Source: a virus (taxonomy: Duplodnaviria; Caudoviricetes). Taken from it: a stretch of 56,832 nt of DNA. Below, one piece after another: positions 5,880 through 52,321 of the stretch. The stretch spans positions 1-56,832 of IMG/VR virus record IMGVR_UViG_3300020152_000004. One strand, 5' to 3'. The notes beneath the pieces were generated by a model. That model saw only the letters and a program-made list of their open reading frames with translations. It had not been told where the DNA came from and did no database searches. Positions within the stretch are counted from its first letter, which is position 1. Every line of letters begins with the position of its first letter. The position numbers and the translations under genes are program-made.

Positions 5880-8033
5880 ATGTTCACCGAAGAGCTGCCA
5901 TACGTCGTAGTCGATGACGGTGGGTCCGGGCTGCACAATGTGCATCATCCGAGTTACGCCGCAGAGGGCGATGGCGTTGCGAACGACCGGACGGCTATAT
6001 CCAGCGCTGACACCGCTGGCGGCGCTCAGCTGCGCGCAGGACGCTCCTATCGCGTGAACTCGGATCTGGCGCTCGCGAACCCGTTCCGGCCGAGCACCGG
6101 GAAACTGAAGCCCGCGGCCGGCGCTACGGTAACGGTCTCTTCGTTTGATGGGCTGCCAGGGCCCGTACAGTGGATCGACCTCTCGCTCGGCGGCGTCGTG
6201 GCCTTCACGCACGGGGCCGTACCCTACGTCCTGCCGCAGTGGTGGGGTGCGAAGGGTGACGGCGCGACCGACTGCACGGCCGCGACACAGGCCGCACTCG
6301 ATGCGCTGGACGTGCTCGGCGGCGGCACGCTGTTCCTGCCACCCGGGACGTATATGATTTCGGACGAGCTGCTGTATGGCTCGAACGTGACGATCGAGGG
6401 CGTCGGCAGCCGGAGCGTGATCAAGATGGCTTCGGGCCTCACCGTCGGGAACCGCATCATGATGGGCCCGGCTGCGTCGGGCGTCGAAGGCGCGCTGCTC
6501 CGGCGTTTCAAGCTCGACCAGAACGGCACGGCGGCCGGTACATGGTCAGGATCGGACCAGTGCCTCTCCGTCAATCGCACGATCGGCTGCGTCGTGGAGC
6601 AGGTGCACTTCGCGGACATCCTCACCATGGCCATCTGGTGCGACTCACCTTCCACGGCCGTGACGGAAGGGCTCGTCGTGCGCGACTGCCGGATCAAGGG
6701 CGGCGACTGGACGTTCGGCGGGATCAGCCTGTTCGGCTTCATGCGCAACATCCTGATCGACGGCAACTGGATCGAGGACTGTACCGACGACTCAATCGCG
6801 ATTCAGGCGGGATCACAGGACTCGAGCTCGCTGTGCTTCAACGTCGTGATCAATGGGAATCGCGTGCGCAATGGGAACCGCCGGATCGATGTGGGCGGCG
6901 GCCTCGCGACCGCGCCGAACGGCATCGTGGTGTGGGGCCTGGCCAGCGGCGCGATCACCGGCAATATCGTTGAGAACGTCGTTTCCTGCGGGATCCGCTG
7001 GGAGGAGTCTGGGGCGCCCGCCGTTGCGGTCGCGGAGAACAGCGAGCTCGCGATCACGGGCAACGTCGTGCGCTATGCGGGCATCACGGCCGACGATACG
7101 ACGGGCGTGCCTGGACACGGCTTCTACGGCTATCACAGCCGGAATGTCACGGTCAGCGGGAACGTAGCGCTCGGCTGCCGCGAGCGGGGCTACGCGCTGA
7201 CCGAGTGCTGGGAGCACACGGTCGCCGGCAATACGTCGAAGGAGAACGGGTACTGCGGGATCGGCGCCGACGACGGCTATGATCAGGTGATCGCAAGCAA
7301 CGTCGTCCTGAACAACGGCGTTAGCGGGACAGAGCCGTACGGCATCCTGCTGAACGACGGCGGCGCGATGGGCAGGATCATTGTGAACGGCAACCGCAGC
7401 GGCGACACGCGTAGCAGCGGCAAGACGCAGACACACGGCTACTACGTGGTCGGCGCACCGGCGTACCTGACCGTGACAAGCAACGACTTCGCCGGAAATG
7501 CGACCGCGCCGATGGGCGGCGCGTGGTTCAACCTGCAGTACGTGATCGAGCACAACCAGGACGGTGTGATCCGGTATTCGCGATCGAGCCAGATCCTCGC
7601 GGCGGGCAGTGTGGGCACTGCGAGAAGGGCATCGGGCAGCAGCGCGATCCTGAATGGAAATGCGAGCCGCACAATCACGCACGGCCTGTCCTCGACACCG
7701 GAGCGGATCCGCATCACGCCGGTCGGCAATCCTGGCGCGGTCATGTACGCCCAAAACGTCGACAGCGACAGCTTTGACGTGGCCGTCGCGTCCGCCGTCT
7801 CCGGCGACAAGGCATTTCTATGGGAGGCGGAATATACGCAGACCGGAACGGACGCGTGGACCTTCGCGCACGGGCTGGGCGGCACCCCGACCCGGGTGCG
7901 GATGACATGGCGCGATGATCCCGGCTCGCCGTGGTGGGTGGAAACGGACGCGACTAACATCGAGGTGCACACGGAGCAGCCGCTCCTGGGCAACGCGGAG
8001 ATCAGCTGGGAGGCGTGGTACGACTTCAGCTGA
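5880..8033 (+). CDS. Tailspike, pectin-lyase-like parallel beta-helix (putative depolymerase)
   Basis: WGAKGDGATDCTAA.QAALD...GGTLFLPPGTY Pectate_lyase_3-type start; repeated I.GN.V beta-helix rungs; duplicated C-terminal HGL..TP module. Confidence 0.85.
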   Translation: MFTEELPYVVVDDGGSGLHNVHHPSYAAEGDGVANDRTAISSADTAGGAQLRAGRSYRVNSDLALANPFRPSTGKLKPAAGATVTVSSFDGLPGPVQWIDLSLGGVVAFTHGAVPYVLPQWWGAKGDGATDCTAATQAALDALDVLGGGTLFLPPGTYMISDELLYGSNVTIEGVGSRSVIKMASGLTVGNRIMMGPAASGVEGALLRRFKLDQNGTAAGTWSGSDQCLSVNRTIGCVVEQVHFADILTMAIWCDSPSTAVTEGLVVRDCRIKGGDWTFGGISLFGFMRNILIDGNWIEDCTDDSIAIQAGSQDSSSLCFNVVINGNRVRNGNRRIDVGGGLATAPNGIVVWGLASGAITGNIVENVVSCGIRWEESGAPAVAVAENSELAITGNVVRYAGITADDTTGVPGHGFYGYHSRNVTVSGNVALGCRERGYALTECWEHTVAGNTSKENGYCGIGADDGYDQVIASNVVLNNGVSGTEPYGILLNDGGAMGRIIVNGNRSGDTRSSGKTQTHGYYVVGAPAYLTVTSNDFAGNATAPMGGAWFNLQYVIEHNQDGVIRYSRSSQILAAGSVGTARRASGSSAILNGNASRTITHGLSSTPERIRITPVGNPGAVMYAQNVDSDSFDVAVASAVSGDKAFLWEAEYTQTGTDAWTFAHGLGGTPTRVRMTWRDDPGSPWWVETDATNIEVHTEQPLLGNAEISWEAWYDFS

Positions 8034-13549: not shown

Positions 13550-13860
13550 TGGCCAGAATCGGGTCCACCGTCCGGCTGACTTTCACGTTCCGCGCCTTCC
13601 CCGTGCCTCCGGCAACGGTAGGGGAGCTGGCCGACTCGAGCACGCCGGTCATGATCCAGCCGATGAAGGGGAAGAAGGCGATCGGCAGCCCGATCAACCT
13701 GATGGAGGCCGGCGGCTCACACCCCAGCCTGGGCGTCTACCAGTACGACTACGTCATCCCGGACGTCGACGCACCGGTGATCACGATCGAGGCGACCGGC
13801 ACCATCGAAGGGACGCCGTCAGTGGCGCGGGAAGGGATTCCGATCAGCTGGGGGGCGTAG
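13549..13860 (+). CDS. Small Ig-like/BppU-like structural protein
   Basis: GSTVRLTFTF...GVYQYDY; last gene of the late rightward transcript. Confidence 0.5.
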   Translation: MARIGSTVRLTFTFRAFPVPPATVGELADSSTPVMIQPMKGKKAIGSPINLMEAGGSHPSLGVYQYDYVIPDVDAPVITIEATGTIEGTPSVAREGIPISWGA

Positions 13861-15859
13861 CGGATTTAAGATGATCAGGAAGGTACTGGCTGTGCGTGCG
13901 TTTGAGGTAGTCCAATCCTGCCGCACGATCAGCGGTAAACTGCAGCTTTTCCTCGAACATCTTCAAGCGCGCCTTACAGTCGTTGATGACCTCTGACCAT
14001 GATTTGACCCACACCGTCATCCGCAGCTGGGAGTTCTGGTAGAGGATACCGCGTGGCCGGTTGTCCTGCTGAATCTCACTACGTACGTCGGGATGGATGT
14101 CATTCGAGACAGCCCAGAACACCCACTTCGTTTCAAGATCCCGAAATCTCTCGTCGCGTTGAACCGCCAAGGCATAGCTCTTAATCTGTTGAGCCACATT
14201 CGGAGTGATTTTCTGCCTGGGTCGTTTTAGCTCGACAACCAAATGCTCTCGCTTGCTGGCATCCTGATGGTAGATGAGCCGTGACAACATCAAGTCGATG
14301 ATACCGTCGGATCCATCGCTGCGCACCACGGGAACATGGGCATCTGTTTTCTCGCCCTCGTCCTGAAGTGGGTCCTCTACTGGCCGCAGGTGCGTGGATC
14401 GATGCTGGAGAAGCACTTCATTCAATGACTCATCGTCGACAGTCAGATTGTACTCCTCTCCGAATATCCACGTCTCTCGCGCTAGGATCCGATGCAGTTC
14501 CTTACGTTCGAGTAGGGTTTTCTTTGAGACAGGATCGTAAAGCAGGATTTCTAGCCCGCGGATAAACTCCAACCGTTCCGCAACCATATTGGCGGCCTCA
14601 ATGACCGCCGAGAGTGATGTCCGTTCTAGAAGTCGGGCAAGCTCATTCTGTTTGTCCGAGGGCAAGGCCAAGACATCGCGGAAGATGCGCTGCAGCGCTT
14701 CTGGGTTCTCCTTAAGGGCGCCTTTAAGTAGTTCGAACGAAAACTTCTTGCTGGTGGGATCTGCCTCTGCGAACGAAGGCATATAGTTGTTGACGTTGAT
14801 CGCGAGAACGTCGAACATCTGCCGTTCGACCTGCTCGACCACGTCCCTCGGCTGGCCTTGATACGGGTATACCTTGTCTCGCTTCCATTCCTCCACGAGA
14901 TCCGCTCGTTGCTCTGCCGCGCGCGCTCTAAAATGATCGCGAAGCTGCTTTTTCGCGGCGGCAACAATGGGCTCAAGCACCGGATTCTCTGGTCCCAGTT
15001 CCAACAAGTTGGCTTCTTCGAGTTCCTTAATATAAGAGGTTCGCAAATAGCAAGTATACGAAAACCCCGGCGCATGAATCCGCGGCTGGAAAGAGAACAA
15101 AGAGAACCCATTCGCGTCACACAAATGCAACGATCTACTAAATTCGGTCTTCCACTCGACGATCGTTAGCACCATGTCGTGGATCCATGTGCCACCCGGA
15201 ACCTGTACGGAATCAAGCCTGTATTCTTGAACGTGCAGCTCAAGGTCTGCTGGATGCAGGCGGCTCTTGTGGTATACGACCGAGATGTCCGGGTAGTTGC
15301 GGAGATATAGTGCAAAGAGCTCCAGCAGTTCTTCGCGGGTCGATTGCTTCAAAAGGTGCGCAAGGTTGGGACGCACGCTGCCGATAGACACCGTGGTTCC
15401 TGTCTGGGTATCATCGCTCGGGATCGAATCGGAGATGTCGAATTGACGGATATCCTGCTTTGATCCCTTGATTCTGAACTCCTGCAGGCGACCAGGTTCC
15501 CCCGTGACGGTTCTCCACTCGACGTCCTCACCTAGTGCGTAGGCCCTTAACCTGCCTTTGCCTTCCTTCCCATGAATGGTTCGGCCGCGCGTGCGAGTTT
15601 TCTGACGGTTTCTCTTCCATGAACCGCCAATGCTCCCAAAGCCCGCCTCGGCGTCAGCTTCGGTCATCCCTGTACCGTTATCGGTGACCGTTATGCCGGC
15701 GATGCTCCCGTTCAACAGACTCTGGTCAAAATCGACCCGGATCAGCGTCGCATCAGCGTCGAGCGCATTCCAAACCAGTTCCGCCAAGGCGACAACGGGG
15801 CGGGCGTTCGTGAGCGCGTGAACGTGGTCGGATGCTACCTTCATTGTTACGCGCTTCAA
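13844..15859 (-). CDS. GHKL (HATPase_c/MORC-like) ATPase fused to a C-terminal PD-(D/E)xK nuclease; putative anti-phage moron
   Basis: ELVWNALDA, DNGTGM, GKEGKGR, GTTV GHKL motifs; WIFGEEY, IDLML, VVELKRP, QIKSY nuclease motifs; TTG start at 15859 after a GGAGGGAGG RBS; more AT-rich than flanks. Confidence 0.8.
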   Translation of the reverse strand: MKRVTMKVASDHVHALTNARPVVALAELVWNALDADATLIRVDFDQSLLNGSIAGITVTDNGTGMTEADAEAGFGSIGGSWKRNRQKTRTRGRTIHGKEGKGRLRAYALGEDVEWRTVTGEPGRLQEFRIKGSKQDIRQFDISDSIPSDDTQTGTTVSIGSVRPNLAHLLKQSTREELLELFALYLRNYPDISVVYHKSRLHPADLELHVQEYRLDSVQVPGGTWIHDMVLTIVEWKTEFSRSLHLCDANGFSLFSFQPRIHAPGFSYTCYLRTSYIKELEEANLLELGPENPVLEPIVAAAKKQLRDHFRARAAEQRADLVEEWKRDKVYPYQGQPRDVVEQVERQMFDVLAINVNNYMPSFAEADPTSKKFSFELLKGALKENPEALQRIFRDVLALPSDKQNELARLLERTSLSAVIEAANMVAERLEFIRGLEILLYDPVSKKTLLERKELHRILARETWIFGEEYNLTVDDESLNEVLLQHRSTHLRPVEDPLQDEGEKTDAHVPVVRSDGSDGIIDLMLSRLIYHQDASKREHLVVELKRPRQKITPNVAQQIKSYALAVQRDERFRDLETKWVFWAVSNDIHPDVRSEIQQDNRPRGILYQNSQLRMTVWVKSWSEVINDCKARLKMFEEKLQFTADRAAGLDYLKRTHSQYLPDHLKSATPPS

Positions 15860-16125
15860 GACCCGACCCTCCCTCCAACGGTAGCTGACGAGGCGTCCCT
15901 CCGCCTCGCGTTCTCGACCAACTCCCCGATCGCCGCGAACAGTTCCTCGCTGTCCACATCCGGATCCACCGGAATCACCCCTGAATACCAGCGGTGACGG
16001 TCCGTTCGGCGAAGCCCGACCCACCAAGTGGGGTTCCCGCGCTCGAGCGCCATGCGGCCGCCGATCGGCTCCAGCTCGTATGCGATCTCCCATGTGCCGG
16101 ACGGGCGTTCAACAAAACGGGTCAC
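15856..16125 (-). CDS. Hypothetical protein
   Basis: 89 aa, 4-bp overlaps with both neighbours. Confidence 0.55.
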   Translation of the reverse strand: MTRFVERPSGTWEIAYELEPIGGRMALERGNPTWWVGLRRTDRHRWYSGVIPVDPDVDSEELFAAIGELVENARRRDASSATVGGRVGS

Positions 16126-29115: not shown

Positions 29116-30972
29116 ATGACGTTCCCGCAGTTTCATCTAGACTTGCACGACGAGCTGATCGTCGACCTGTTCGCCGGCGGCGGCGGCGCCTCCGACGGCA
29201 TCCGTGAGGCGCTGGGGCGCGAGTCTGACATCGCGATCAACCATGACGCCGCGGCCGTCGCGCTCCACAAGCTGAATCACCCTCAGACCCACCATCACAC
29301 GTGCGACGTCTTCGAGGTCGACCCCCGGACCGTCACCGGCGGTCGCCCGGTCGGACTGCTCTGGGCGTCGCCGGACTGCACGTATCACAGCAAGGCGCGG
29401 GGCGCGAAGCCGATACGGCACGCGAACAAGAAGCGCCGCGCGCTCGCCTGGGTCGTGACCCGCTGGTGCGCGCAGATGAAGCCCCGCGTGGTCATGCTCG
29501 AGAACGTCGAGGAGTTCGTCCACTGGGGCCCGCTCGTCGCGAAGCGCGACCCAGAGACCGGCCGCGTGCTGAAGCTGGTGAACCCGGGCGCGGACATGGA
29601 CGATGCGGACGAGTCGAAGCGGCCGAAGTACGTGGTCGCGGAACCGGGAGAGGTCGTGCCGGTGGAGCTCCAGGCTCTCACGCCGGACCCGCGCCGCCGC
29701 GCGAAGCATTTCCGCCGCTGGTTACGCTCCCTCGAGGAGCTGGGCTACGTCGTCGATTACAGGGAACTGAAGGCATGCGACTTCGGTGCACCGACGATCC
29801 GCAAGCGGCTGTTCCTCGTCGCGCGCTGCGACGGGCAGCCGATCGTGTGGCCGGAGCCGACGCACGGACCAGGGCGCGCGTATCCGTACCGCACGGCCGC
29901 CGAGTGCATCGACTGGTCAATCCCCATGCTCTCCATCTTCGCGACGAAATCGGAGGCGCGTGCGTGGGCGAAGAAGCTCGGCCAGGCGATCCCGATCCGT
30001 CCGCTCGCCGAAGCGACGATGCGGCGCGTTGCGCGCGGCGTCATGCGGTATGTGGTGAATGCGGCCCGGCCGTTCATCGTCCCCATCCAGAACGCCAGTG
30101 GCCGCGGAGCGCAGAGCGCGGACGAGCCGCTACGCACAGTGACCGCAATGCCAAAGGGAGGCGGCTTCGCTGTCGCAGCGCCGATGCTGGTACCGCGCTA
30201 TGGCGAGCGCGACGGGCAGGAGCCGCGCGTGCGCTCAACCGAGCAGCCGCTCGCGACGATTGTAGCCACCGACAACGGCGGCAGCCTCGCCGCCGCACAG
30301 CTTGCGACCTACTACGGATCGAAGTCCGATCGTGACGTGCGCGGGTCGGCAATGTCGGAGCCCGTCGACACAATCCCGACGGAGAACCGTCACGCGCTCG
30401 TCGCGTCGTTCATGGCGCGGCACTACGGCGGCGTGGTGGGCAAGGATCTTCGGGAACCCCAGGGTACCGTTCTCTCGAAGGGCGCGCAGGACCAGCTCGT
30501 CGCCGCTCACCTGTCGCACATGTATACGAGCAATACGGCCGGTGGGCAGGGCGATCCAACGCAGCCGCTCAAGACGCAGACGACGGCCAATCACGCCGGT
30601 CTGATCTACGGGTTCCTGCAGAAGTACTACGGCCAGGGCATCGGTCAGGATGCAGGCGCGCCGATGGACACCATCACGACGAAGGACCGGTTCGGCATCG
30701 TGATGGTCACGGTCGACGGCGTTCTGTTCGCGATCGTCGATATCTGCATGCGCATGCTGCAGCCGCGCGAGCTGTACAACGCGCAGGGCTTCTCGCCCAA
30801 CTACCGCATCAACTGCCAGGTCTGGGACATGACACGGAAGAAACCGCGCTGGCGCTGGCTGACGAAGACTGAGCAGGTCCGGATGGTCGGCAACAGCGTA
30901 TCCCCGCCAGTCGCCACCGCACTCGCAGCGGCGAACGTCCCCGAGCTCGCAATGCGCAAGGTGGCCGCATGA
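29116..30972 (+). CDS. DNA (cytosine-5) methyltransferase
   Basis: DLFAGGGG, ASPDC, ENV, RKRLF, GNSV motifs; repeated P..T(I/V) modules. Confidence 0.93.
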   Translation: MTFPQFHLDLHDELIVDLFAGGGGASDGIREALGRESDIAINHDAAAVALHKLNHPQTHHHTCDVFEVDPRTVTGGRPVGLLWASPDCTYHSKARGAKPIRHANKKRRALAWVVTRWCAQMKPRVVMLENVEEFVHWGPLVAKRDPETGRVLKLVNPGADMDDADESKRPKYVVAEPGEVVPVELQALTPDPRRRAKHFRRWLRSLEELGYVVDYRELKACDFGAPTIRKRLFLVARCDGQPIVWPEPTHGPGRAYPYRTAAECIDWSIPMLSIFATKSEARAWAKKLGQAIPIRPLAEATMRRVARGVMRYVVNAARPFIVPIQNASGRGAQSADEPLRTVTAMPKGGGFAVAAPMLVPRYGERDGQEPRVRSTEQPLATIVATDNGGSLAAAQLATYYGSKSDRDVRGSAMSEPVDTIPTENRHALVASFMARHYGGVVGKDLREPQGTVLSKGAQDQLVAAHLSHMYTSNTAGGQGDPTQPLKTQTTANHAGLIYGFLQKYYGQGIGQDAGAPMDTITTKDRFGIVMVTVDGVLFAIVDICMRMLQPRELYNAQGFSPNYRINCQVWDMTRKKPRWRWLTKTEQVRMVGNSVSPPVATALAAANVPELAMRKVAA

Positions 30973-31487
30973 CACGCATGTCAGCGAACCAGCTCGACAC
31001 CGTCGCCTCGAAGATTCTCGAGGGCCTGCTCGTCCACATGCCCGACGTCCCGCCCGACAAGCTCGAGCTCATTCTCGCGCGCGTCGCACGGATGCATCGC
31101 GAGCGCGTGGAGCAGAGCGAGGCCGCCGGCGTAGCTGCAATCGAGGAAGCCGCGCGCGCGGAAGCCGTTGAGCGGATGCAGCGAGCGGAAGCCCTCATGC
31201 TCGCGCGCCAGGCGGAGGCGAAGCAGCGCGATGAGGTGATCGAGAAGCAGCGGCAGGGTGTAGCCGCCGCGCGTCTCGCGCGTGCAATCAAGGACGGCGC
31301 TGGGTCGCCCCTGAAGCGGAAGAAGAAGTTCCCGGTGCTCGTCGGGCAGATCCGCGCGCTGCGCCGGGATAATCCGACGATCAAGCAGTCAGCCGCATTG
31401 CGCCATTTCGAGACGATGTATGGCCCGAAGTACCTATCGGGTCCGGGCTTCCGCGTCTACTGGCTGGAGGCGACGGGGCCGCGATGA
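30969..31487 (+). CDS. Hypothetical protein
   Basis: 172 aa, ATGA-coupled. Confidence 0.55.
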   Translation: MTRMSANQLDTVASKILEGLLVHMPDVPPDKLELILARVARMHRERVEQSEAAGVAAIEEAARAEAVERMQRAEALMLARQAEAKQRDEVIEKQRQGVAAARLARAIKDGAGSPLKRKKKFPVLVGQIRALRRDNPTIKQSAALRHFETMYGPKYLSGPGFRVYWLEATGPR

Positions 31488-32038
31488 GTTACATGACCCA
31501 CCGGGCAACGAATCATCCCCAACAAGTCGCTGCGAATGGAGTGCGCGACGACGTAGACGATCGCGCGACGACGCCCGAACTGTTCGCGAAAATACACGCG
31601 CGATTCGGATTTACTATTGACGCTGCAGCGGCTTCTCATAACGCGAAGCTTCCGCGCTTCTTCGACCGAGCGACATGCGGCCTGTCGCAGCCGTGGGCGG
31701 GCGAGCGCGTGTGGTGCAACCCTCCGTACAGCCGGATCCGCCCGTGGATCGAAAAGGCGTGGGCGTCTGAAGACGCGCCGCTGATCGTGATGATCCTGCC
31801 TGCGAACCGTACCGAGCAGGGCTGGTGGCAACATCTCGTCGAGCCGTTCCGGGACCGTCCGGGCTCAGTTCTTCGAACGGAGTTCCTCCCCGGACGCATT
31901 CGGTTCCTTAAGCCTGGACAAAGCAGGATCGGGCCGAACGAGCGCTCTCCATTCGGCTGCGTTCTGCTCATCTGGGACCGGCATAACACAACCGCGGCCT
32001 CCCCGCGGCCGCATATCCCCAATCACCCGGGAAGATAG
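31484..32038 (+). CDS. Phage DNA N6-adenine methyltransferase (Dam family)
   Basis: TTPELF, FTIDAAA, GLSQPW, VWCNPPYS, LPANRTE..WW, GRIRF. Confidence 0.88.
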   Translation: MSYMTHRATNHPQQVAANGVRDDVDDRATTPELFAKIHARFGFTIDAAAASHNAKLPRFFDRATCGLSQPWAGERVWCNPPYSRIRPWIEKAWASEDAPLIVMILPANRTEQGWWQHLVEPFRDRPGSVLRTEFLPGRIRFLKPGQSRIGPNERSPFGCVLLIWDRHNTTAASPRPHIPNHPGR

Positions 32039-40520: not shown

Positions 40521-40703
40521 ATGAGGGATCTTCACAGCCGGGCGGCGCAGCTGGTCAAGGACGCATTCGAGCGTTCACGCGAACGGGAGATCGAGATCCG
40601 CGCCGAGAGCTGGCCACAGGACCCGCCAGCCGATGCGAACGCGGACTCGCAGGCGTGGGCCTATGTGCTGGCCGTGCTCGAGGAGCGAAAACCACCGAAG
40701 TAG
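40521..40703 (+). CDS. Hypothetical protein
   Basis: GGAG RBS, 60 aa. Confidence 0.5.
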   Translation: MRDLHSRAAQLVKDAFERSREREIEIRAESWPQDPPADANADSQAWAYVLAVLEERKPPK

Positions 40704-40710
40704 GAATGCC

Positions 40711-42090
40711 ATGAGGATCATCAACGAAACCACGGAGCTGGTACCTGTCACGCAGCTCCGGCCGCACCCGAAGAACGCGCGCGCCGGCGACGTTGATGAA
40801 ATCCATTCGAGCATCCGGGACAATGGCTTCTACGGGTCGCTGGTCGTGCAGCGATCGACCGGGTACATCCTCGCAGGTAACCACCGCTTCCAAGGCGCGC
40901 TGCGCGCCGGCGCGCGCACGCTGCCGGTCACTTGGGTCGACGTTGACGACACCACGGCGCTCCGCATCCTGCTCGTCGACAACCGCACGAACGACCTCGC
41001 CGGGTACGATGATGTCGCGCTGACCAACCTGCTTGAGGAGATCCTCGAGGAGAGCGGCACCCTGGACGGGACCGGCTACGACCGTGACGCACTGGACGAG
41101 CTGCTCGCGCATGTCGCGGAGGAGGAAGCCCGCGACGAGGGCGACACGTTGATCGTCCTCCCCGAGGCGCCGAAGTCCCAGCGCGGGGAGGTGTATGAGC
41201 TCGGGCCGCACCGGCTGATGTGCGGCGACAGCACGGACCTCCGCGACGTGCAGCGGCTGATGGGCGGCGATCGCGCGCACCTCGTGAATACGGACCCGCC
41301 ATATGGTGTGTCGTACCAGGGCACGGGGTTCGACGTCATCCAGAATGACAACCTGCGCGGCGACGATCTGCTGAGCATCTTGATGCCGGCGCTGCAGCTC
41401 GCGGCCGAGTTCGCGGTGGAGAACGCGGCGTTCTACATCTGGCACGCCAGCTCGACGCGGAAAGACTTCGAGTGGGCCATGGACGCGGCCGGCCTCGAGG
41501 AGAAGCAGTACATCCTCTGGGCCAAGGACTCATTCGTCCTCGGGCACGCCGACTACCACTGGCAGCACGAGCCCTGCTTTTATGCCCGGAAGGTCGGCTG
41601 CACCCCACCGTTCTATGCCGACCGCACTCAGAGTACCGTGTGGCGGTTCGCCGCTCGGCGCGCATCCGGCGAACGGAGCGTCGCGCTCGCGAACGGGATC
41701 CGCATATCCAACGGCGCCGGGGCCGAGGTTTACGTTCAGCCGCAGGCGCCGAAGACGCGCCGCACGCGTCTCGTCCGCCTGCACGCCGGCGAATCAGTGC
41801 TGCTCGTCCCCGGACCGGGCGGTGTCACGGACCTCTGGGACGTGAAGCTGGACACCGATGCGTACCAGCATCCCACGCAGAAGCCTGTCGCGCTCGCGGT
41901 GAACGCGATTCAGAACAGTTCGCGCCCAGGCGACATCGTGCTCGACCTGTTCGGTGGTGGGGGATTCACGCTGCTCGGAGCGGAGGCCACAAAGCGCGTC
42001 GCGCGCGTAATGGAGCTGGACCCGCGCTACTGTGACGTCATCCGCCGTCGCTACGCCGAATTCGCGGGTCGGCCGGAGCTCGCGCCGTGA
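40711..42090 (+). CDS. ParB-like N-domain fused to a DNA N4/N6 methyltransferase
   Basis: PHPKNAR...AGNHR...DNR ParB motifs; TDPPYGV, HPTQKPV, VLDLFGGGG, ELDPRYCDVI. Confidence 0.9.
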   Translation: MRIINETTELVPVTQLRPHPKNARAGDVDEIHSSIRDNGFYGSLVVQRSTGYILAGNHRFQGALRAGARTLPVTWVDVDDTTALRILLVDNRTNDLAGYDDVALTNLLEEILEESGTLDGTGYDRDALDELLAHVAEEEARDEGDTLIVLPEAPKSQRGEVYELGPHRLMCGDSTDLRDVQRLMGGDRAHLVNTDPPYGVSYQGTGFDVIQNDNLRGDDLLSILMPALQLAAEFAVENAAFYIWHASSTRKDFEWAMDAAGLEEKQYILWAKDSFVLGHADYHWQHEPCFYARKVGCTPPFYADRTQSTVWRFAARRASGERSVALANGIRISNGAGAEVYVQPQAPKTRRTRLVRLHAGESVLLVPGPGGVTDLWDVKLDTDAYQHPTQKPVALAVNAIQNSSRPGDIVLDLFGGGGFTLLGAEATKRVARVMELDPRYCDVIRRRYAEFAGRPELAP

Positions 42091-44518: not shown

Positions 44519-46207
44519 ATGGGCACGTTTGCAACCTCTGTGATGGGATGGCTGTCGGCACTGGTCGATGAGGGGAAGCTGCTGCCCTACAAGGGCGAGT
44601 GGGTCCCCTCCGATCACCATGAACGGCTCCGACAGTACGAGATCTTCCGGGCGCTTACGGAGAACCGATTCGGCGCTCTGCTGCGAAGCAAGGAAACGGG
44701 GAAGAAGCTGCGCGGATACGGCGACTATGCGCTGATCGTCGACACGAGCCGCGACGCAGTGCTCGGGGACCGCGTTGAGATTGAGGTCCCCGGATCCACG
44801 GATGAGAAGAACGCCGGCGCCGTTGCACGCAAGGCGTTCCTGGACCGGTGGGCGCGGAACGAGCGCTGGGCGTCGAAGCTCTACCGAGCCGAGACCGACG
44901 CTGCGGCCGTGGGCGACTGCGTCTATGAGCTGCGGCCCGATGGTAGCCGCCTGCGCCTGCGCACGCACGACCCTGAGTCATTTTTCCCGGTGTGGGTCAA
45001 TGCGGAGGGCGACTTCGATGAGGCGTATCTCGCTTGGGAGGAGCTGAACACCGCGCAGTATCTGCCGGTGCGTCCGGGGAACATGACCGACATCCGGAAC
45101 CGGGACGGCGAGGTCATCGTGTACCGCCGACACTACCGGGTGATCTCGCGCGAGCGGGCTACCGAGCTCGGGATCACACTCGTCGGTGCGCGCAGCCGAA
45201 AGGAGATCTGCATCGTCTCGGCCGGATGGTACCGCATCGAGACGAAGGGCGGCGCCGCTGCAGTGGGTCTCGAGTACCTGCAGCTGCTCGGTTCAGAGCT
45301 GCTCGACGACGACACCCCGATCGTGAACCTGGACACGGGCTTCGACACTGTGCCGGTGTTCTATGTACCGAACCGCGAGGCGACGAATCAGCCATGGGGG
45401 CTGCCGGAGGGTGAGGCCGTGCTGCAACTCCTCCTGGATGCGTCACAGGACGCGACCGACCTGAAGGACAACACGTTTCACAACGCGTTCCCGATCCTGT
45501 ACGACGAGAATCCGCCGATCGCGACGTTGCCGCGGCCGGGCCAGCAGGGCGCAGCGACCCAATCCTCTGAGAAGTACCGGCCGGGCACGATCTACAACGG
45601 GCGGAAGCTCGGGACCGTCGACATGTCGAAGGGCAACACGATCCTGCTCGAGCACGAGAAGTGGCTGATCACGAAGGCCCTGTCGAACTCCCGCACGACG
45701 CTGATCGCGGCGGGGAAGCTCGAGGTGGGAGAAATTCCGTCGGGCATCGCGCTTCTGATCGCCATGCTGCCCCTGTTCTCGAAGACGCTGCCGAAGCGCA
45801 CGACGCGGCGGGACAAGCTCGGGATGCTGCTGAAGCATGTGATTCGCTGGCACCGCGAGTTCGGAAGGCCGTCCGACTTCTTCGGCGCGGCGCAGCCGGC
45901 GGACGGGCAGGGCAGTGCAGAGCCACAGTGGCCCGCGGGCATCTGGAACAGCGAGGAGGCATACCCGTCGTTCGGATCGATCATCCCGATCGATCGCACC
46001 CAGGTCTCCGAGATCGTCGCGAGCCTCCTGCACGCGGACGCCATCAGTGACGAGGTCGCAGTCGAGATGCTGCAGCAGGCGGGCTTCCCCATCCACGACG
46101 CAGCGGAGGAAGTGCAGCGGATCAAGGAGCGCCGCGCCCTCCCAGTGGGCGCTCCGGGCAGCGGGCTCGGGAATCAAGGCATCGCTATCCCGGGGATCGA
46201 CGCGTAG
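44519..46207 (+). CDS. Portal protein
   Basis: 562 aa directly after TerL; GD.VY, VPVFYVPN, SGIAL patterns of SPP1 gp6-like portals. Confidence 0.82.
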   Translation: MGTFATSVMGWLSALVDEGKLLPYKGEWVPSDHHERLRQYEIFRALTENRFGALLRSKETGKKLRGYGDYALIVDTSRDAVLGDRVEIEVPGSTDEKNAGAVARKAFLDRWARNERWASKLYRAETDAAAVGDCVYELRPDGSRLRLRTHDPESFFPVWVNAEGDFDEAYLAWEELNTAQYLPVRPGNMTDIRNRDGEVIVYRRHYRVISRERATELGITLVGARSRKEICIVSAGWYRIETKGGAAAVGLEYLQLLGSELLDDDTPIVNLDTGFDTVPVFYVPNREATNQPWGLPEGEAVLQLLLDASQDATDLKDNTFHNAFPILYDENPPIATLPRPGQQGAATQSSEKYRPGTIYNGRKLGTVDMSKGNTILLEHEKWLITKALSNSRTTLIAAGKLEVGEIPSGIALLIAMLPLFSKTLPKRTTRRDKLGMLLKHVIRWHREFGRPSDFFGAAQPADGQGSAEPQWPAGIWNSEEAYPSFGSIIPIDRTQVSEIVASLLHADAISDEVAVEMLQQAGFPIHDAAEEVQRIKERRALPVGAPGSGLGNQGIAIPGIDA

Positions 46208-46209
46208 GC

Positions 46210-46701
46210 ATGACTGACACGGAGACCGAAACGATCAAGGACTGGTCACCCGGCGTACTGCGTGACTTTGCCCATCTCTTCTGCGGCGAGCATCTGGGTG
46301 GCGGCATCGGACGACAGGTCTATGTTCTGCTGACCGATCCCACCAAGGTTGTGAAGATCGAGACCCAGGCGTACAGCTTCCAGAACGCACTCGAGTGGTC
46401 GACATGGAAGGAACTGTCGGAGACGAAACTGTCGCAGTATCTGGCGCCATGCCATTTCATCTCCCCGTGCGGCATGGCCCTGATCCAATCGCGGGTTCAG
46501 CCCCTGCCAACCGCGGCTGAGGAGAAGGCCGCGGGGACGAACGTGCTGAAGGACGTGAGGCTGCCGCGGTTCCTGACAGACTTCAAACGCGGCAATTACG
46601 GGATCCTCGACGGACGGGTCGTGGCATGTGACTACGGGACCCACCTGGCGATCGGCTACGGCGCCACGCGCCACCTGCGGAAGCCCGACTGGTGGGAATG
46701 A
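46210..46701 (+). CDS. Minimal protein-kinase-like protein
   Basis: HLGGGIGRQVY Gly loop, VVK lysine, NALE alphaC Glu, DFKRGN catalytic loop, DYG. Confidence 0.75.
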   Translation: MTDTETETIKDWSPGVLRDFAHLFCGEHLGGGIGRQVYVLLTDPTKVVKIETQAYSFQNALEWSTWKELSETKLSQYLAPCHFISPCGMALIQSRVQPLPTAAEEKAAGTNVLKDVRLPRFLTDFKRGNYGILDGRVVACDYGTHLAIGYGATRHLRKPDWWE

Positions 46702-47204
46702 CGCTGAAGGTGCGGCCGGAAGCTGCCGCCCAGATCGCGCAGCTCTGCGCAGATGCCCCCCAGCTGGAAACCGGCGGCGTCCTCGTCGGCTGGAGGTACA
46801 ATGAGGTCGCCGCGGAGGTGGTCCATGCGACCGGGCCGGGACCGAATGCCCTACTACAGGCCCGGGAGATGGAGTGGGACCCGAGCTACATCCAGGGCAT
46901 CATGGACGGAATCCAGCTCACCCGGGGGGGCTTTGGCATCATCGGGCGCTGGCACAAACACGCCGCTCCCGTCATACTTGCGAGTCAGCAGGATCGGCAC
47001 GGCGCCGAATGGTTCCGGATGGCGATCGCACCGGAAGACGCCACGGTGGAGCTGATCGTCGGGACCGGCGAAAATGACATGCCGCTCGCCTACGGTGCAT
47101 ATCTATGTACGTGCGACGGACTGCAGCGAATCGAGTGCGAGACGGACGCCACTGATGATGAAGAGCTTTCCCCCCGCCAACTGGCGCCAGCAGATACGGC
47201 GTAA
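46698..47204 (+). CDS. JAB/Mov34/MPN+ (JAMM) metalloprotease
   Basis: ETGGVLVG...ATGPG...WHKH-x7-SQQD gives a complete E/HxH-x7-SxxD motif; ATGA-coupled to the kinase. Confidence 0.85.
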   Translation: MTLKVRPEAAAQIAQLCADAPQLETGGVLVGWRYNEVAAEVVHATGPGPNALLQAREMEWDPSYIQGIMDGIQLTRGGFGIIGRWHKHAAPVILASQQDRHGAEWFRMAIAPEDATVELIVGTGENDMPLAYGAYLCTCDGLQRIECETDATDDEELSPRQLAPADTA

Positions 47205-47415
47205 CCTGCCGTTCCCGCCGGGACGCGGAGACGACGAGTTCGAAGCCATCATCACGAAGTTCCAGCAGGTTTATCAGCTCAATCTTGCCACGGGTGAAGT
47301 GTTCGTCCGGACCGGTGCGCACACATGGGATCAGCCCGCGTGGCTGGAGCTGCCGGACGTCGTGCGCGCCCGTATCCACGAGGCACTCAAAAACAGAGAT
47401 ACGTTGACGCAGTAA
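47155..47415 (+). CDS. Hypothetical protein
   Basis: 86 aa, last gene before the capsid-operon promoter. Confidence 0.5.
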   Translation: MMKSFPPANWRQQIRRNLPFPPGRGDDEFEAIITKFQQVYQLNLATGEVFVRTGAHTWDQPAWLELPDVVRARIHEALKNRDTLTQ

Positions 47416-47433
47416 CTCTGACGTTTATACATT
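47404..47433 (+). promoter_or_regulatory. sigma70-type promoter for the capsid operon
   Basis: TTGACG(47404-09)-18 nt-TACATT(47428-33). Confidence 0.7.
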
Positions 47434-47496: not shown

Positions 47497-47542
47497 ACCC
47501 ACCTCGAGAAATCGGGGAACGGGCCCGGCCGCTTTTTTGTTT
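47489..47542 (+). terminator. Intrinsic terminator in the capsid-operon leader
   Basis: gcggtcggaccc...cctcga-GAAA-tcgggg...gggcccggccgc followed by ttttttgttt. Confidence 0.8.
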
Positions 47543-47591: not shown

Positions 47592-48281
47592 ATGCCATTG
47601 GAGACACTTCAGATGCGGACACTGTCGAACTTGAAGATGCTGCCGTTGCTCGTGCTGGCTGGCCGTTTCAACGCACCGGAAGGTGATGAGGGCGGCGCAG
47701 GCGGCGATGCGAAGGGAAAGGCCGAGGACAAGTCCAGCGAAAAGCCCGCGGACAAATCCAAGGAGAAGGCGGACGAGAAGGGCGATGAAGACAAGCCTGC
47801 GATCCCATACGCCCGATTCACTGAGGTGAATCAGCAGCGGCGGGATGCGGAGGCGAAGGTCACCACCCTGACCGCCGACAACGAACGGCTGACCCGCGAG
47901 AACACGCAGCTCAAGTCGGCAGACCAGGCCGGCGCCCTCGCCGCGGCACAGGACCGCGTGAAGGAGCTCGAGAAGTCGATCGGCGAAGTGGAGAAGGAGT
48001 TCGAGGACATGCTCGAGGTCGCTCTCGCACCGCTGCCGAAGGAGAAGGCCGCGATCGTCCGGGACATTCCCGGCGGCGCGCGCATTCAGTTCGCCTGGTT
48101 CAACAAGCATCGGAGTTCGCTCGTCGGCGAGGATTCGCCGAAGGGTCCCCCGGGCGTGAAGGGTCCGAAGCACGAGAAGAAGCCGGGCGCGAAGGACGAG
48201 CCGGTCGCGTCCAGCGTCGCACAGTCATTCGTCGAACAGGCGAAGCCGGCCGAGAAGACAGGATTCAAGGGCCTCCTCTGA
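47592..48281 (+). CDS. Capsid scaffolding protein
   Basis: Charged N-terminal linker, IPYARF.EVN motif, coiled coil; precedes the decoration and capsid genes. Confidence 0.8.
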   Translation: MPLETLQMRTLSNLKMLPLLVLAGRFNAPEGDEGGAGGDAKGKAEDKSSEKPADKSKEKADEKGDEDKPAIPYARFTEVNQQRRDAEAKVTTLTADNERLTRENTQLKSADQAGALAAAQDRVKELEKSIGEVEKEFEDMLEVALAPLPKEKAAIVRDIPGGARIQFAWFNKHRSSLVGEDSPKGPPGVKGPKHEKKPGAKDEPVASSVAQSFVEQAKPAEKTGFKGLL

Positions 48282-48318: not shown

Positions 48319-48900
48319 ATGAAACTCGGACTAACGACCGACTCGGTCGCTGCGAATCCGACGTGGCTCGACTCCACGGAAGGCATGCGCTTCCTGGTGG
48401 GCGGCGTCACGATTGACAGCGCCAAGGTTCGGCTGGGCGACGACGGCAAGCGCGTCGTCCGGAGCGGTACCCCCATCGGGAAGTCGGGCTCGAAGTACCG
48501 CCCGGCAGTCTACACGCAGCTCGCCGCGGCAGCACTGAGCGCCGCAACCACGATCGACGTCGACGATGCATCCGGGATGGTCGTCGGGGATTCGATCGTT
48601 ATCGGCGGGACCGCCAAGACCATCGATTCGATCGACATGGGCGGCGGCACAGGCGGCTCAGACCGGATCACCCTCACCGCAGCGCTCGGAGCGGACAAGG
48701 CGGACAACGCGCTTGTGATCGGTGCGGATGTCGGCGTCGGCGTCGTCGGTCTGCTGTGGGAGACGCTCGATGTGACGGACGGCGATGCGCACGGCGCCGT
48801 GCTCGACCATGGCCGTGTGAACGCGGCCGCAATTCCTGTCGACATTCACGCTGATGTGCGGGAAGCGCTGTCCGCCATCGGTATCACGTTCAAGAGCTGA
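48319..48900 (+). CDS. Head decoration protein (gpD-like)
   Basis: GVTID...VRSGTPIG...GLLWE.LDV..GD..G.V..HG.V pattern; GGAGG RBS. Confidence 0.72.
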   Translation: MKLGLTTDSVAANPTWLDSTEGMRFLVGGVTIDSAKVRLGDDGKRVVRSGTPIGKSGSKYRPAVYTQLAAAALSAATTIDVDDASGMVVGDSIVIGGTAKTIDSIDMGGGTGGSDRITLTAALGADKADNALVIGADVGVGVVGLLWETLDVTDGDAHGAVLDHGRVNAAAIPVDIHADVREALSAIGITFKS

Positions 48901-48904
48901 GGCG

Positions 48905-50308
48905 ATGATGATCCGACGCACCTGTCTCTGGGTTGCAGCGCACGTGGCGCTGCTGCTGACCGAGCTCGGGCGACTCACCGTCGTCGCACCGAAGCTCCCG
49001 CGGCTGATTCAGTTCAGCCTGCATCCGTTCGTGAAACGCGGGCACGGCAAGGTCCTCGCCGGCGGTGGCCGAAGCGGTGGCTTCGCACTGCGCCTGACAG
49101 TCGCAGTCGCCGTGCTCGCATTCCTGGTCGTAGGGGCAACCGTGGTTTCGGACTTCATGCACACCGGATCCGGCGCAACACTCGCCGGCGCCATGATGCT
49201 GATCCCCGGGGCCGCGGGTCGGTTCGGTGACGCGAGTTCGGACCTGCTGACCGAGATCGACGGGCTGTCTACGACCGACATCCAGTACGTCGTCGACAAC
49301 ACCAACCCATTCGATCGGCTCGCGCCAGGTGGTCTGCTCGGCGACGCACTCTTTCCGGCCCGTCCGACGCAGGAGCTCGACTTCAAGTACCTGAAGGGGG
49401 CCGGCGGTGCGGCGGTGATGGCACACGTCACGACGCACAACTCCGAGGCGCCGCTGGTGAACCGGCGCGGCCTCGAGACGGTCTCCGGTCAGATCCCGGC
49501 GATCAAGCAGAAGCGCTATCAGGATGCGCACACGCTGATCCGGCTGCAGAGTGCGGATGCACTCATCCAGAGCCAGGTCGTGCGGGACATCTATGATGAC
49601 GTCACGGACACGAGGCTGGGCGTTGTCGCGCGGCTGGAGAAGCTGCGAATGGACGCACTCGCCACGGGCACGGTGTCGCAGCTGACCGAGGAAGGGCTCG
49701 TTTACAGCGTCGACTACGGCGTGCCGAACGACCACAAGGAAACGCTTTCGGGCGGGGACCTGTGGAGCGCCACGACGGCCGAACCGCTGTCCGACCTCGA
49801 GCGCTGGCAGAACATCATGGTGGGCGACACCGGCCACCAGATGGCTGTCGGTGTGACGAGCTCCGCAGCGATCAGCGCGCTTCGTCAGCATGAGAGCGTC
49901 CGGAAGGCAATCTGGGGCGTAAACTACGACCGTCGCGTGACGAACGACGAGCTGAATCAGTTCCTGACTGCTCAGGGCCTCCCGACGCTGATCTCTTACG
50001 ACCAGATGGTCGCGCAGCAGGCGGCGAACGGCACGCAGTCAGCAGTCCGCCTGTTCCCCGAGAACCGTCTGACGCTGATCCCGGCGGTTGCGACGGGCTC
50101 GCTCGGCCGCACGCTCCGCGCACCGACGGCGGAGGAGGCGGTCCGCTCGATCGCAGACGGCGTGATTGTGGTCGATCAGTTCCGGATCGCGACGCACGTC
50201 TACGTCGCCACCCAGGACCCAAAGGGTCTGGTGACGCTCAGCGTGGCCAGCACGTTCCCGAGCTTCGAGCGTGCCGGCCACGTTTTCCAGGCCGTGGTGC
50301 TGGCGTAA
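48905..50308 (+). CDS. Major capsid protein (lambda gpE-like family) with hydrophobic N-terminal extension
   Basis: LFP, A.V...NSEAP, IPAIK, RLEKLR.DAL.TG, VDYGVP, W....AEPLSDL, FPS motifs; alternative start at 49193. Confidence 0.88.
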   Translation: MMIRRTCLWVAAHVALLLTELGRLTVVAPKLPRLIQFSLHPFVKRGHGKVLAGGGRSGGFALRLTVAVAVLAFLVVGATVVSDFMHTGSGATLAGAMMLIPGAAGRFGDASSDLLTEIDGLSTTDIQYVVDNTNPFDRLAPGGLLGDALFPARPTQELDFKYLKGAGGAAVMAHVTTHNSEAPLVNRRGLETVSGQIPAIKQKRYQDAHTLIRLQSADALIQSQVVRDIYDDVTDTRLGVVARLEKLRMDALATGTVSQLTEEGLVYSVDYGVPNDHKETLSGGDLWSATTAEPLSDLERWQNIMVGDTGHQMAVGVTSSAAISALRQHESVRKAIWGVNYDRRVTNDELNQFLTAQGLPTLISYDQMVAQQAANGTQSAVRLFPENRLTLIPAVATGSLGRTLRAPTAEEAVRSIADGVIVVDQFRIATHVYVATQDPKGLVTLSVASTFPSFERAGHVFQAVVLA

Positions 50309-51265: not shown

Positions 51266-52321
51266 ATGTCTACAATCCCCCCAGGCACTGCACTTGATCG
51301 CGCGGCCATGGAGCGCGTGGAAGCCTTGGCGGAGCTGTTCCGCGTGGCGGCGAAGGAGCTGCGTCAGCTCGAGAGACAGATGCGCGCGAACACATACCGC
51401 CGGGCGTACCTGAAGGCACGCATCGCGGAGGCGCAGCGCATCATTGACTCGCTGATCTCCATTCGAACCGGATCGATGACCGGCACCGTGGTCGACTGGG
51501 CCCGGGTCAGCATCCCGCCGACTTACCAGTTCGGCGCCGGCCTCGCAGTCCGGGATCTCCAGGTGCAGATGGTGGCGGTGACGGCCGGTGCGCCCACGAT
51601 CCACGTGCGGGCGGTCGACGCGCTCATCGACCGTTTCCTCACGAATAGCACTCAGATCGTCATCAAGATGCAGGCGAACGTGCTGCGCACAGTGCGCGTC
51701 GTCCTGGAGCAGTCTGGCTTCGGACCCGAGATCGCGCAGGGCATCATCGGTGGCCTGCCGCGCCGCACGGTGTCGAAGCAGCTTGCCACCGCGCTCCGAA
51801 AGGCCGCGAGCGTTCCCCTCCCGGCATCCAAGCCGGCTGACTTCACGCATGTGGAGATCAACGGCAGGTTTTTCCCAGTAGAGACGTGGGCGGAAATGCA
51901 TGCCCGGACTGAGCTCGCTCGGGCCAGCACCGCCGGCACGAGGGTGATGACGGTCGTGAACGGCGTGCGTCATGTGCAGATCACATCCCATGCACACGAG
52001 CCGTGCATCTGCACCCCGTTTGAGGGGCGGATCTACGCGCTCGAGCAGGGGGATCCGGATTTCTCGTGGATCGGGGATGTACCGAACGGCGGGTGTCCGA
52101 TGCACCCGAACTGCGTGCACCGCGAGGCGCCTGCGGTCATCGCTTTCCTGCAGGAGCGTGGAGAGATCGAGGGGCGCACGAGGATCCCGGAGGCGTTTGT
52201 CGGCCTGGATGCTTCTGAGCTCGCGCGCATCGTGCGCGAGAACCGCGACCAGCTCCAGTCATACTCGATGCGCCGCAGCGGTTACCTGCCCGAATCTTTC
52301 CGCATCAAGGCGGTCGCCTGA
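51266..52321 (+). CDS. Minor capsid protein (MuF/SPP1 gp7-like)
   Basis: WAEMHARTE, C.ICTPFEGRIY, PMHPNCVH. Confidence 0.8.
   Translation: MSTIPPGTALDRAAMERVEALAELFRVAAKELRQLERQMRANTYRRAYLKARIAEAQRIIDSLISIRTGSMTGTVVDWARVSIPPTYQFGAGLAVRDLQVQMVAVTAGAPTIHVRAVDALIDRFLTNSTQIVIKMQANVLRTVRVVLEQSGFGPEIAQGIIGGLPRRTVSKQLATALRKAASVPLPASKPADFTHVEINGRFFPVETWAEMHARTELARASTAGTRVMTVVNGVRHVQITSHAHEPCICTPFEGRIYALEQGDPDFSWIGDVPNGGCPMHPNCVHREAPAVIAFLQERGEIEGRTRIPEAFVGLDASELARIVRENRDQLQSYSMRRSGYLPESFRIKAVA

Follow-up and report, generated by a model that had tools for sequence, protein, structure and literature searches.

A stand-alone JAMM metalloprotease in a phage head module as a candidate leader peptidase for scaffolding and capsid proteins

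The cyclases (CD-NTases, cGAS/DncV-like nucleotidyltransferases) of type II CBASS (cyclic oligonucleotide-based antiphage signaling system) carry conserved C-terminal tails whose last residue is mostly Ala or Gly, as stated in the Krueger preprint. According to the Ledvina preprint, Cap3 cleaves a linear cGAS-GFP fusion exactly after the final cGAS residue and shows high specificity for the extreme tail, overexpression of Cap3 abolishes CBASS defence, and the type II CBASS cyclase of E. cloacae has the C-terminus GRFA, as given in a construct description. A second precedent is phage 80alpha. As described in PMC5744158, its capsid and scaffold proteins lose N-terminal leaders of 13-14 residues, which are cut between Phe and Ala by the host protease Prp and share a motif with ribosomal protein L27. 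Here we describe a gene at 46698-47204 of the IMG/VR virus record IMGVR_UViG_3300020152_000004 (56,832 nucleotides; this whole stretch of DNA is called the window), which encodes a stand-alone JAMM/MPN+ (JAB) metalloprotease and lies among the head genes of a tailed phage. We put the probability at about 55% that this JAB is a recruited Cap3-like leader peptidase that trims the scaffold and the capsid protein at an A-G-R-F-A junction.

The proposed mechanism is as follows. A phage lineage would have recruited a predicted-active zinc JAMM endopeptidase from the E1-E2-linked JAB isopeptidases, the group to which Cap3 belongs. The enzyme would be made late, from the terminase-portal gene block, and its substrates would be the phage's own scaffolding and major capsid proteins, each of which has a variable N-terminal leader. 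The end of the leader would occupy the substrate groove of the JAB as the C-terminal tail of ubiquitin or of a CD-NTase does, and cutting at the end of the motif would set free the mature forms of both proteins. The Cap3 analogy suggests a cut behind the small residue C-terminal to Phe; the model locates the bond only to plus or minus one residue. We infer that the JAB cuts these leaders, that it does so at this site, and that the cutting matters for assembly. An earlier note on this DNA, made from the sequence alone, had offered two proposals, either an anti-defence deconjugase that protects virion proteins or a new class of capsid-maturation protease. The second proposal is now supported by conserved gene order, a co-varying leader motif, likeness to cyclase tails and a complex prediction that passed its controls.

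The features of the JAB gene are listed here.

46698-47204, plus strand: stand-alone JAMM/MPN+ (JAB) metalloprotease, 168 residues, predicted from motif, profile matches, structural model and Foldseek
46767-46769, plus strand: codon of E24, the predicted JAMM catalytic glutamate, invariant in 94 of 94 aligned sequences
46953-46994, plus strand: H86-x-H88-x7-S96-x2-D99, the predicted zinc-binding and catalytic motif, read directly from the sequence and invariant

The earlier note had reported a complete E...HxH-x7-SxxD motif in a stand-alone gene, and both statements hold. The protein reads LETGG around the glutamate and then WHKHAAPVILASQQD, which gives E24, H86-x-H88, seven residues, S96, two residues and D99. 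These E, H, H, S and D residues are invariant in 18 aligned homologues as well as in the 94-sequence alignment. The ATG at 46698 overlaps the stop codon of the upstream gene (ATGA), and the homologues share the start residue. Residues ~150-168 form an acidic tail of low model confidence, which the homologues do not have. The AlphaFold2 model built from the 94-sequence alignment has a pLDDT (predicted local distance difference test) of 92.8. Foldseek against the PDB returned Rpn11 and archaeal Rpn11-like proteins (4e-10), Cap3 (9ild_A, 1.4e-8) and JAMM1, with E values from 4e-10 to 5e-7. Superposition of the model on Cap3 9ild_A gave a TM (template modelling) score of 0.63 and a root-mean-square deviation of 2.8, and Cap3 9ild_A also ranks first in a profile search of PDB sequences (4.9e-8). 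Thus, the MPN fold is confident and the JAMM motif is real, not a chance occurrence. By motif and fold, the protein is a JAMM/MPN+ enzyme and a predicted peptidase or isopeptidase.

The strongest profile match is the PADLOC CBASS 'JAB' model PDLC00895 (E 5.3e-12). In NCBIfam the matches are 6A-MBL cap2_3, which is the JAB part of a Cap2-Cap3 fusion (4.4e-9), ICE_VC0181 (3.9e-7) and Cap3 (1.9e-3), all far under their respective cut-offs; the Cap3 equivalog NF050170, for example, gave 18.5 bits against a cut-off of 200. Pfam Prok-JAB (PF14464) gave 23.8 bits (24 in a six-frame search), missing the gathering cut-off of 25, which three relatives pass. In the six-frame search of the genome this JAB is the sole Prok-JAB match, and the tail module contains none.

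Related loci were sought with an alignment of seven JAB sequences. The relatives with genomic context are L001 (a 59-kb IMG/VR contig), L002 (a 57.5-kb contig in a gammaproteobacterial metagenome-assembled genome, MAG) and the short L003 (3.2 kb) and L004 (1 kb). The window, L001 and L002 are full loci, in which the scaffold and the capsid protein can be compared. The genes and leaders concerned in the window are these.

47613-48281, plus strand: scaffolding protein, 222 residues from an ATG preceded by GGAG, assigned from position, coiled and charged composition, and homologues
47613-47672, plus strand: scaffold N-terminal leader, residues 1-20, ending A-G-R-F-N (47658-47672), with the proposed cut at or beside the motif
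48905-50308, plus strand: major capsid protein of the lambda gpE family with an N-terminal extension (PF03864 2.8e-32; phrog_29 2.9e-58)
48905-49228, plus strand: capsid-protein leader, ~108 residues, with a hydrophobic stretch, ending A-G-R-F-G (49214-49228)

Both leaders end in the same short motif, and within each of the three full loci the motif co-varies between scaffold and capsid protein: AGRFN and AGRFG in the window, PGHFA and PGRFG in L001, and AARFA and AATFA in L002. A search of protein collections added 25 capsid clusters and two scaffolds to the comparison. The motif [AGP][GA]xF[AGNS] was then found in 23 of the 26 capsid proteins and in all five scaffolds; two further capsid proteins keep x-F-A-E-P, which makes 25 of 26 when read loosely, and P0177 alone has no motif. 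The consensus at the leader end is L-x-hydrophobic-A-G-R-F-A followed by E/D-P-(S/G)-G-D. The 13-110 residues ahead of it show no other conservation and in many cases include a hydrophobic run. Such a variable leader joined to a conserved junction is what a processing site looks like, and from sequence we regard the motif as a conserved candidate cleavage site in both proteins. The loose form occurs three times in the 18,224 residues of the open reading frames (ORFs) of the window, namely in the scaffold, in the capsid protein and in one doubtful ORF extension; the pattern was derived from these same proteins, so this count speaks for specificity and not for independent significance. The shared leader-end motif of scaffold and capsid proteins is a new observation.

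The capsid leader is predicted to be translated from an ATGATG start directly after the stop of the decoration gene. This start is conserved in the window and L002, and an independent gene call uses it (P0153, 466 residues). A candidate explanation, that the leader is an untranslated spacer, was ruled out by the conserved start and by this gene call. Third-position GC fits the capsid frame from about 48895, and a second frame is high too. As a separate observation, hydrophobic runs of 18-22 residues, similar to a membrane helix or a signal peptide, are present in many capsid leaders, which is odd for a capsid protein.

Window 48905-49213, and P0154, P0155, P0157-P0160, P0164 and P0172: capsid leaders with a hydrophobic run

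Other capsid homologues have leaders of only 13-25 residues, which means that the hydrophobic part is optional or that some start codons were miscalled.

The leader ends were compared with cyclase tails. The sample consisted of 401 Pseudomonadota genomes, 27 of which had a JAB match besides the MAG that bears L002; 20 of these 27 regions were examined, together with four Cap3 loci from a separate search. Five Pfam-confirmed CD-NTases upstream of Cap2-like genes end in QRFA, GRYG, GGRYAGSALP, RTKAG and HSKAG. Another five of the ten genes upstream of E1-E2 genes have no Pfam family, all standing before E1-E2-JAB fusions, and the tail comparison did not include them. Tails of the R-F/Y-A/G type therefore recur among cyclases and are not universal. 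By sequence, the phage leader-end motif A-G-R-F-A resembles the type II CBASS cyclase tails that Cap3 cuts.

Two side observations were made in this sample. The DncV-like, Pfam-confirmed cyclase at L069 3081-4133 (plus strand), 5' of a Cap2-like gene, is the one that ends in GGRYAGSALP, four residues past R-Y-A-G; it may represent a precursor that its Cap3 has to trim before it can be conjugated. L052, L058, L062, L064 and L065 contain E1-E2-JAB fusions of 743-790 residues, each preceded by a protein of 380-399 residues without a Pfam family. These operons are conjugation systems whose substrate protein is no recognisable CD-NTase.

A complex of the JAB, scaffold residues 1-45 and zinc was also predicted, with alignments of 94 rows for the JAB and three rows for the scaffold. 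The score was 0.85 (runs of 0.84, 0.86 and 0.85), and three controls, including both partner-swapped ones at 0.00, gave 0.00, 0.00 and 0.02. Of 80 solved complexes used in calibration, 58 came up to this mark, as did two of 110 mismatched pairs. At least 70% of contacts agree between the runs, and the partner pLDDT is at least 54. The interface on the scaffold comprises residues 9-10 and 12-23, and the best-defined contacts place F19, the Phe of the motif, against E24, H86, S96 and D99 of the JAB. This supports a likeness of the leader end to JAMM substrate tails, and as a model it is not proof of cutting.

The JAB has few close relatives. tblastn against 50,697 phage records gave no match, the protein belongs to no PHROG family, and among 5.8 billion clustered proteins there were just two close relatives. 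Searched with a profile, 1.84 billion representatives yielded 597 matches at E<=0.001, 18 of them at E<=1e-10. After P0017 (9.3e-17) come the 95-residue fragment P0018 and P0019 (1.9e-11), and from 8.4e-11 down the matches are generic JAB proteins and the JAB ends of proteins of ~700-820 residues. The core clade consists of 17 cluster representatives from this search, 32-73% identical to the window protein. PDLC00895 was matched by 93 of 94 short hits, and three weak matches were found on plasmids, one of them adjoining a ThiF-family gene. The scores under the curated Pfam and NCBIfam cut-offs and the lack of a PHROG family or of a match among the phage records would also suit a decaying or inert passenger gene without present function. 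Such a gene would hardly keep five catalytic residues invariant in 17 clade representatives of such divergence, together with full-length ORFs, a confident fold and a conserved position. Conservation argues strongly against this explanation, and we consider it very improbable.

A tree was built from 41 JAB domains, 18 taken as the clade and 23 from bacterial genomes with readable neighbours; it is midpoint-rooted and includes long branches. The 17 core members form one group (98/95) beside a group that contains all E1-E2-linked JABs (97/90), meaning JABs fused to, or encoded downstream of, an E1-E2 gene. Four of the five JABs that adjoin Pfam-confirmed cyclases fall in one subgroup of the E1-E2-linked group, P0019 groups with cellular JABs outside the core, and the window JAB clade lies outside every Cap3 subgroup. 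The tail JABs of the lambda gpK type had been named in the earlier note as the affiliation that would tell against its proposals; the clade profile leaves lambda K undetected at E<=10. The nearest relatives thus appear, from sequence comparison, to be the E1-E2-linked JAB isopeptidases including CBASS Cap3, and not lambda gpK. In the phage genome, searches for E1 (ThiF) and cyclase (SMODS) gave no match at E<=1; there is no Cap2 (E1-E2), cyclase or effector, and the neighbours of the JAB gene are portal, scaffold and capsid genes. The JAB is akin to Cap3, yet neither operon, score nor tree makes it a Cap3.

The window is a complete genome: the record has direct terminal repeats and is rated 100% complete. 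Pfam and PHROG scans describe a high-GC, siphovirus-like phage with a major tail protein, a tape measure, a tail spike, several DNA methyltransferases and a lambda gpE-type capsid protein. The head-block features other than those given above are as follows.

44519-46207, plus strand: portal protein, 562 residues (phrog_64 portal 1.3e-10; 56-71% identical to the L001-L003 portals)
46210-46701, plus strand: accessory gene, 163 residues, protein-kinase-like (phrog_4301 1.9e-32, function unknown; Atlas model against Pkinase TM 0.67)
L001 7777-7989, L002 7545-7730 and about 7730-7990, and L003 2230-2457: Cys-rich genes in the slot between portal and JAB
47155-47415, plus strand: conserved protein of 86 residues, function unknown (present 3' of the JAB gene in four of the four loci that extend that far)
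L001 8818-9078, L002 8623-8874 and L004 632-883: homologues of the 86-residue protein
47512-47540, plus strand: terminator-like hairpin and T-run between the JAB block and the scaffold gene (consensus match only)
48319-48900, plus strand: head decoration protein (phrog_909 2.1e-11; phrog_3583 head decoration 1e-8)
51266-52321, plus strand: minor head protein, MuF / SPP1 gp7-like (phrog_4611 1.9e-22)

Comparison of gene order in related phages, proposed in the earlier note as a check, shows that the order portal, JAB, scaffold, capsid is kept in the window, L001 and L002. The full order is TerL, portal, one or two small variable genes, JAB, sometimes a small gene, the 86-residue gene, scaffold and capsid, with the decoration gene 5' of the capsid gene in the window and L002. 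L003 shows portal, small gene and JAB, and L004 shows JAB and then the 86-residue gene. JAB P0003, capsid protein P0154 and scaffold P0178 come from contigs each of 14,986 bases and were counted as a sixth set. The JAB gene had been described as lying between portal and scaffold. It does lie between them, and it adjoins neither, since the 163-residue gene precedes it and the 86-residue gene and a 200-nt spacer follow it. Because the order is kept while the JABs of the loci with context are only 40-44% identical, against 56-71% for the portals, the JAB gene is a stable member of the head block, and the block also tolerates accessory genes at that point.

The Cap3 kinship bears on the first proposal of the earlier note, in which the JAB is an anti-defence deconjugase. 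It would act as a Cap3 mimic that strips host CD-NTase conjugates, or remove Bil-type ubiquitin-like protein conjugates from virion proteins, and the leader motif would be unrelated to it. Since the phage has neither E1 nor cyclase, any conjugate removed by the JAB would be host-made. The nearest relatives being E1-E2-linked JABs including Cap3 speaks for this proposal, the loss of CBASS defence upon Cap3 overexpression, as reported in the Ledvina preprint, fits it, and variable accessory genes share the stretch in which the JAB gene lies. With at least three DNA methyltransferase genes, the genome also invests in counter-defence. Yet nothing in the genome speaks directly for a deconjugase. 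The position in the head module is kept in every locus with context despite the low identity of the JABs, and the clade stands beside the E1-E2-linked JABs and inside no Cap3 subgroup. Furthermore, this explanation does not account for a co-varying, cyclase-tail-like motif, docked on the active site in the model, in two unrelated head proteins. The literature searched, which covers few subscription journals, describes no phage Cap3 homologue. CD-NTases were not found in two incomplete MAGs with related contigs, a result that carries no weight because one control search was silent as well. Taken together, we consider the deconjugase unlikely, with real points in its favour.

A bolder variant combines both roles and is, in our judgement, speculative and improbable. 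The leader ends would be true mimics of cyclase tails, and the JAB would both mature the head proteins and strip host cGAS conjugates, with the released leaders as decoys. Hundreds of leaders released per capsid, with free ...G-R-F-A carboxylates, could occupy the E1 site of host Cap2. If this were true, capsid assembly itself would disarm a defence that published work has linked to capsid proteins.

As a side observation on counter-defence, three DNA methyltransferase genes lie at window 29116-30972, 31484-32038 and 40633-42090, one of them with a fused ParB-like N-terminal domain. With at least three such genes, the phage invests heavily against restriction.

No classical prohead protease was found in the window. 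Six-frame searches of the whole genome for Peptidase_S78, S49, ClpP, S77 and S78_2 gave nothing at E<=1, and among 30 proteins scanned against PHROG none matched a protease family at E<=1e-5; the MuF-like minor head protein gave the sole hint, phrog_595 at 1.9e-4. The earlier note had recognised no HK97-type, ClpP or S49 protease and had held that one found by profile search would speak against a maturation role; profile searches leave its reading intact. It had also called the tail gene at 1944-2363 (plus strand) an NlpC/P60 gene without a JAB domain. The JAB domain is indeed absent, and the name does not stand, since the Pfam match of the gene is DUF6950 (1.2e-24), with none to NLPC_P60 at E<=0.01.

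The same features of the head genes can be read without cutting by the JAB. The leaders could be cut by a host protease, as by Prp in 80alpha, or stay uncut, the motif being a signal for assembly or chaperone binding, while the JAB does another head job, for example trimming the portal or another minor protein, or acting with its 86-residue neighbour. This fits 80alpha, where, according to PMC5744158, both cuts are the work of a host protease and assembly requires the scaffold leader, cut or uncut. The constant presence of the 86-residue gene 3' of the JAB gene is in line with it as well. On the other hand, the motif ends in a small residue like the cyclase tails, the model sets its Phe on the JAB catalytic residues while the partner-swapped controls give 0.00, and no other candidate substrate motif was seen. 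In addition, Prp-type processing of L27 is reported as a Firmicutes trait, and the related phage contigs are binned with one gammaproteobacterial and one Gemmatimonadetes MAG. We regard this alternative as doubtful.

Several points weigh against leader trimming by the JAB and are included in the estimate given above. All of its support is computational. Leader lengths hinge on predicted start codons, and the co-occurrence of JAB and motif can be checked in three full loci and one contig set. The likeness to cyclase tails spans just three to four residues, and two of the five confirmed cyclases in the sample have a differing tail (RTKAG and HSKAG). The complex prediction was for the scaffold leader only, its calibration did not extend to custom alignments or to a riding zinc ion, and its pass may reflect solved JAMM-ubiquitin-tail and Cap3-cyclase complexes that the model had learned. 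The interval between portal and scaffold also holds variable accessory genes, which makes position alone weak evidence. Unlike the classical prohead proteases, the JAB has no conserved scaffold-like or capsid-binding tail for entry into the procapsid, and this lack of a targeting tail also favours cutting by a host protease or none. Many phages with a separate scaffold, SPP1 and P22 among them, do without a protease altogether, so that the absence of a classical protease is by itself weak evidence. Finally, PMC5744158 describes cleavage of the 80alpha capsid protein as dispensable; cutting here, even if real, may therefore be non-essential.

Leader trimming by the JAB, if true, would be of interest in several respects. 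To our knowledge, prohead proteases are all serine enzymes of a few families, the host cysteine protease Prp being the one exception we know of. A JAMM enzyme would be a new catalytic class in that role, and no paper describing a JAMM prohead protease was found in the literature searched. It would further show plainly how a phage can carry an enzyme-substrate recognition pair, a JAB and a short tail, over from the ubiquitin-like branch of bacterial immunity into virion assembly. The prediction can be tested, since it names a defined cut site in two proteins that depends on five named residues. Furthermore, it raises the question whether such phages resist type II CBASS, and a compact, sequence-specific module for leader removal may find use as a tool.

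Some neighbouring genes deserve a description of their own. The sole match in a portal search was Streptomyces phage ZL12 at 29% identity; a scan of IMG/VR with the portal protein alone gave nothing, and one with a portal alignment gave just the contig already known. The 163-residue protein at 46210-46701 resembles a miniature protein kinase. A Gly-rich loop, a VVK motif and D-x-K-x-x-N and D-Y-G motifs can be seen by eye, and the nearest named Atlas feature clusters include Phage_T7_kinase. Among the loci compared, this kinase-like gene stands at this position only in the window. In the relatives, the slot between portal and JAB is filled by small Cys-rich (CxxC...CxxC) proteins of 61-75 residues without a Pfam family, and it is thus a variable accessory spot within the head block. 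The 86-residue protein, which may be a partner or regulator of the JAB, is 38-49% identical in the alignment of the window, L001, L002 and L004 sequences and has an invariant F-P-P-G motif. Its model shows a four-stranded sheet and a C-terminal helix (pLDDT 78.6); no ubiquitin-like fold was seen, which does not rule such a fold out. Searches of Pfam, PHROG, NCBIfam and PADLOC gave no family for it, Atlas gave no usable match, and no fold match was obtained among 48,161 chains (best Z 4.3). The 200-nt gap between the 86-residue gene and the scaffold gene contains, besides the hairpin, a promoter-like site at 47404-47433, and together they suggest a separate, stronger expression unit for the scaffold, decoration and capsid genes. 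Elsewhere in the genome, the 749-residue protein of 13844-16093 (minus strand), one of few minus-strand genes, matches phrog_6203 (3.7e-67, function unknown).

How this locus relates to known systems can be stated for four of them. Lambda gpK is likewise a phage-encoded JAB/MPN domain matched by Pfam Prok-JAB; its JAB is fused to NlpC/P60 in the tail-tip module, whereas the window JAB is stand-alone and in the head module. In lambda K itself (NC_001416, L072 1277-1876, 199 residues), only the C-terminal half of the Prok-JAB model (63-112) lies ahead of NlpC/P60, and the frame has a stop six codons upstream of the annotated start. The classical prohead proteases (HK97 gp4 of S78, T4 gp21 of S77, lambda gpC of S49 and the ClpP-like S14 enzymes) are encoded between the portal and the scaffold or capsid genes. 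This placement is seen in the window, L001 and L002, while L003 shows the portal side only. A further likeness would lie in the proposed action, in which capsid and scaffold proteins lose N-terminal segments at a short consensus site. They are serine proteases of unrelated fold and class, whereas the JAB is a predicted zinc metalloprotease.

Cap3 and the phage JAB are both stand-alone JAMM proteins of about 150-170 residues with the E, HxH, S and D residues. As reported, Cap3 cuts peptide bonds in linear fusions right after a short tail that ends in Ala or Gly, and the phage motif A-G-R-F-A resembles such tails. The phage JAB differs from Cap3 in lying among head genes, without Cap2, cyclase or effector, and in branching beside the E1-E2-linked JABs. 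Its proposed substrate tail would be internal, at the end of an N-terminal leader, whereas that of Cap3 is the C-terminus of an enzyme. With 80alpha, the locus shares two non-homologous head proteins whose N-terminal leaders have a common motif, and in 80alpha one protease is reported to trim both. Prp is a host cysteine protease with the cellular substrate L27, whereas a phage-encoded zinc JAMM enzyme is proposed here, known from computation alone, and the substrate that it mimics would be the tail of an immune cyclase. By analogy, 80alpha would be the closest functional precedent for the proposed trimming of leaders.

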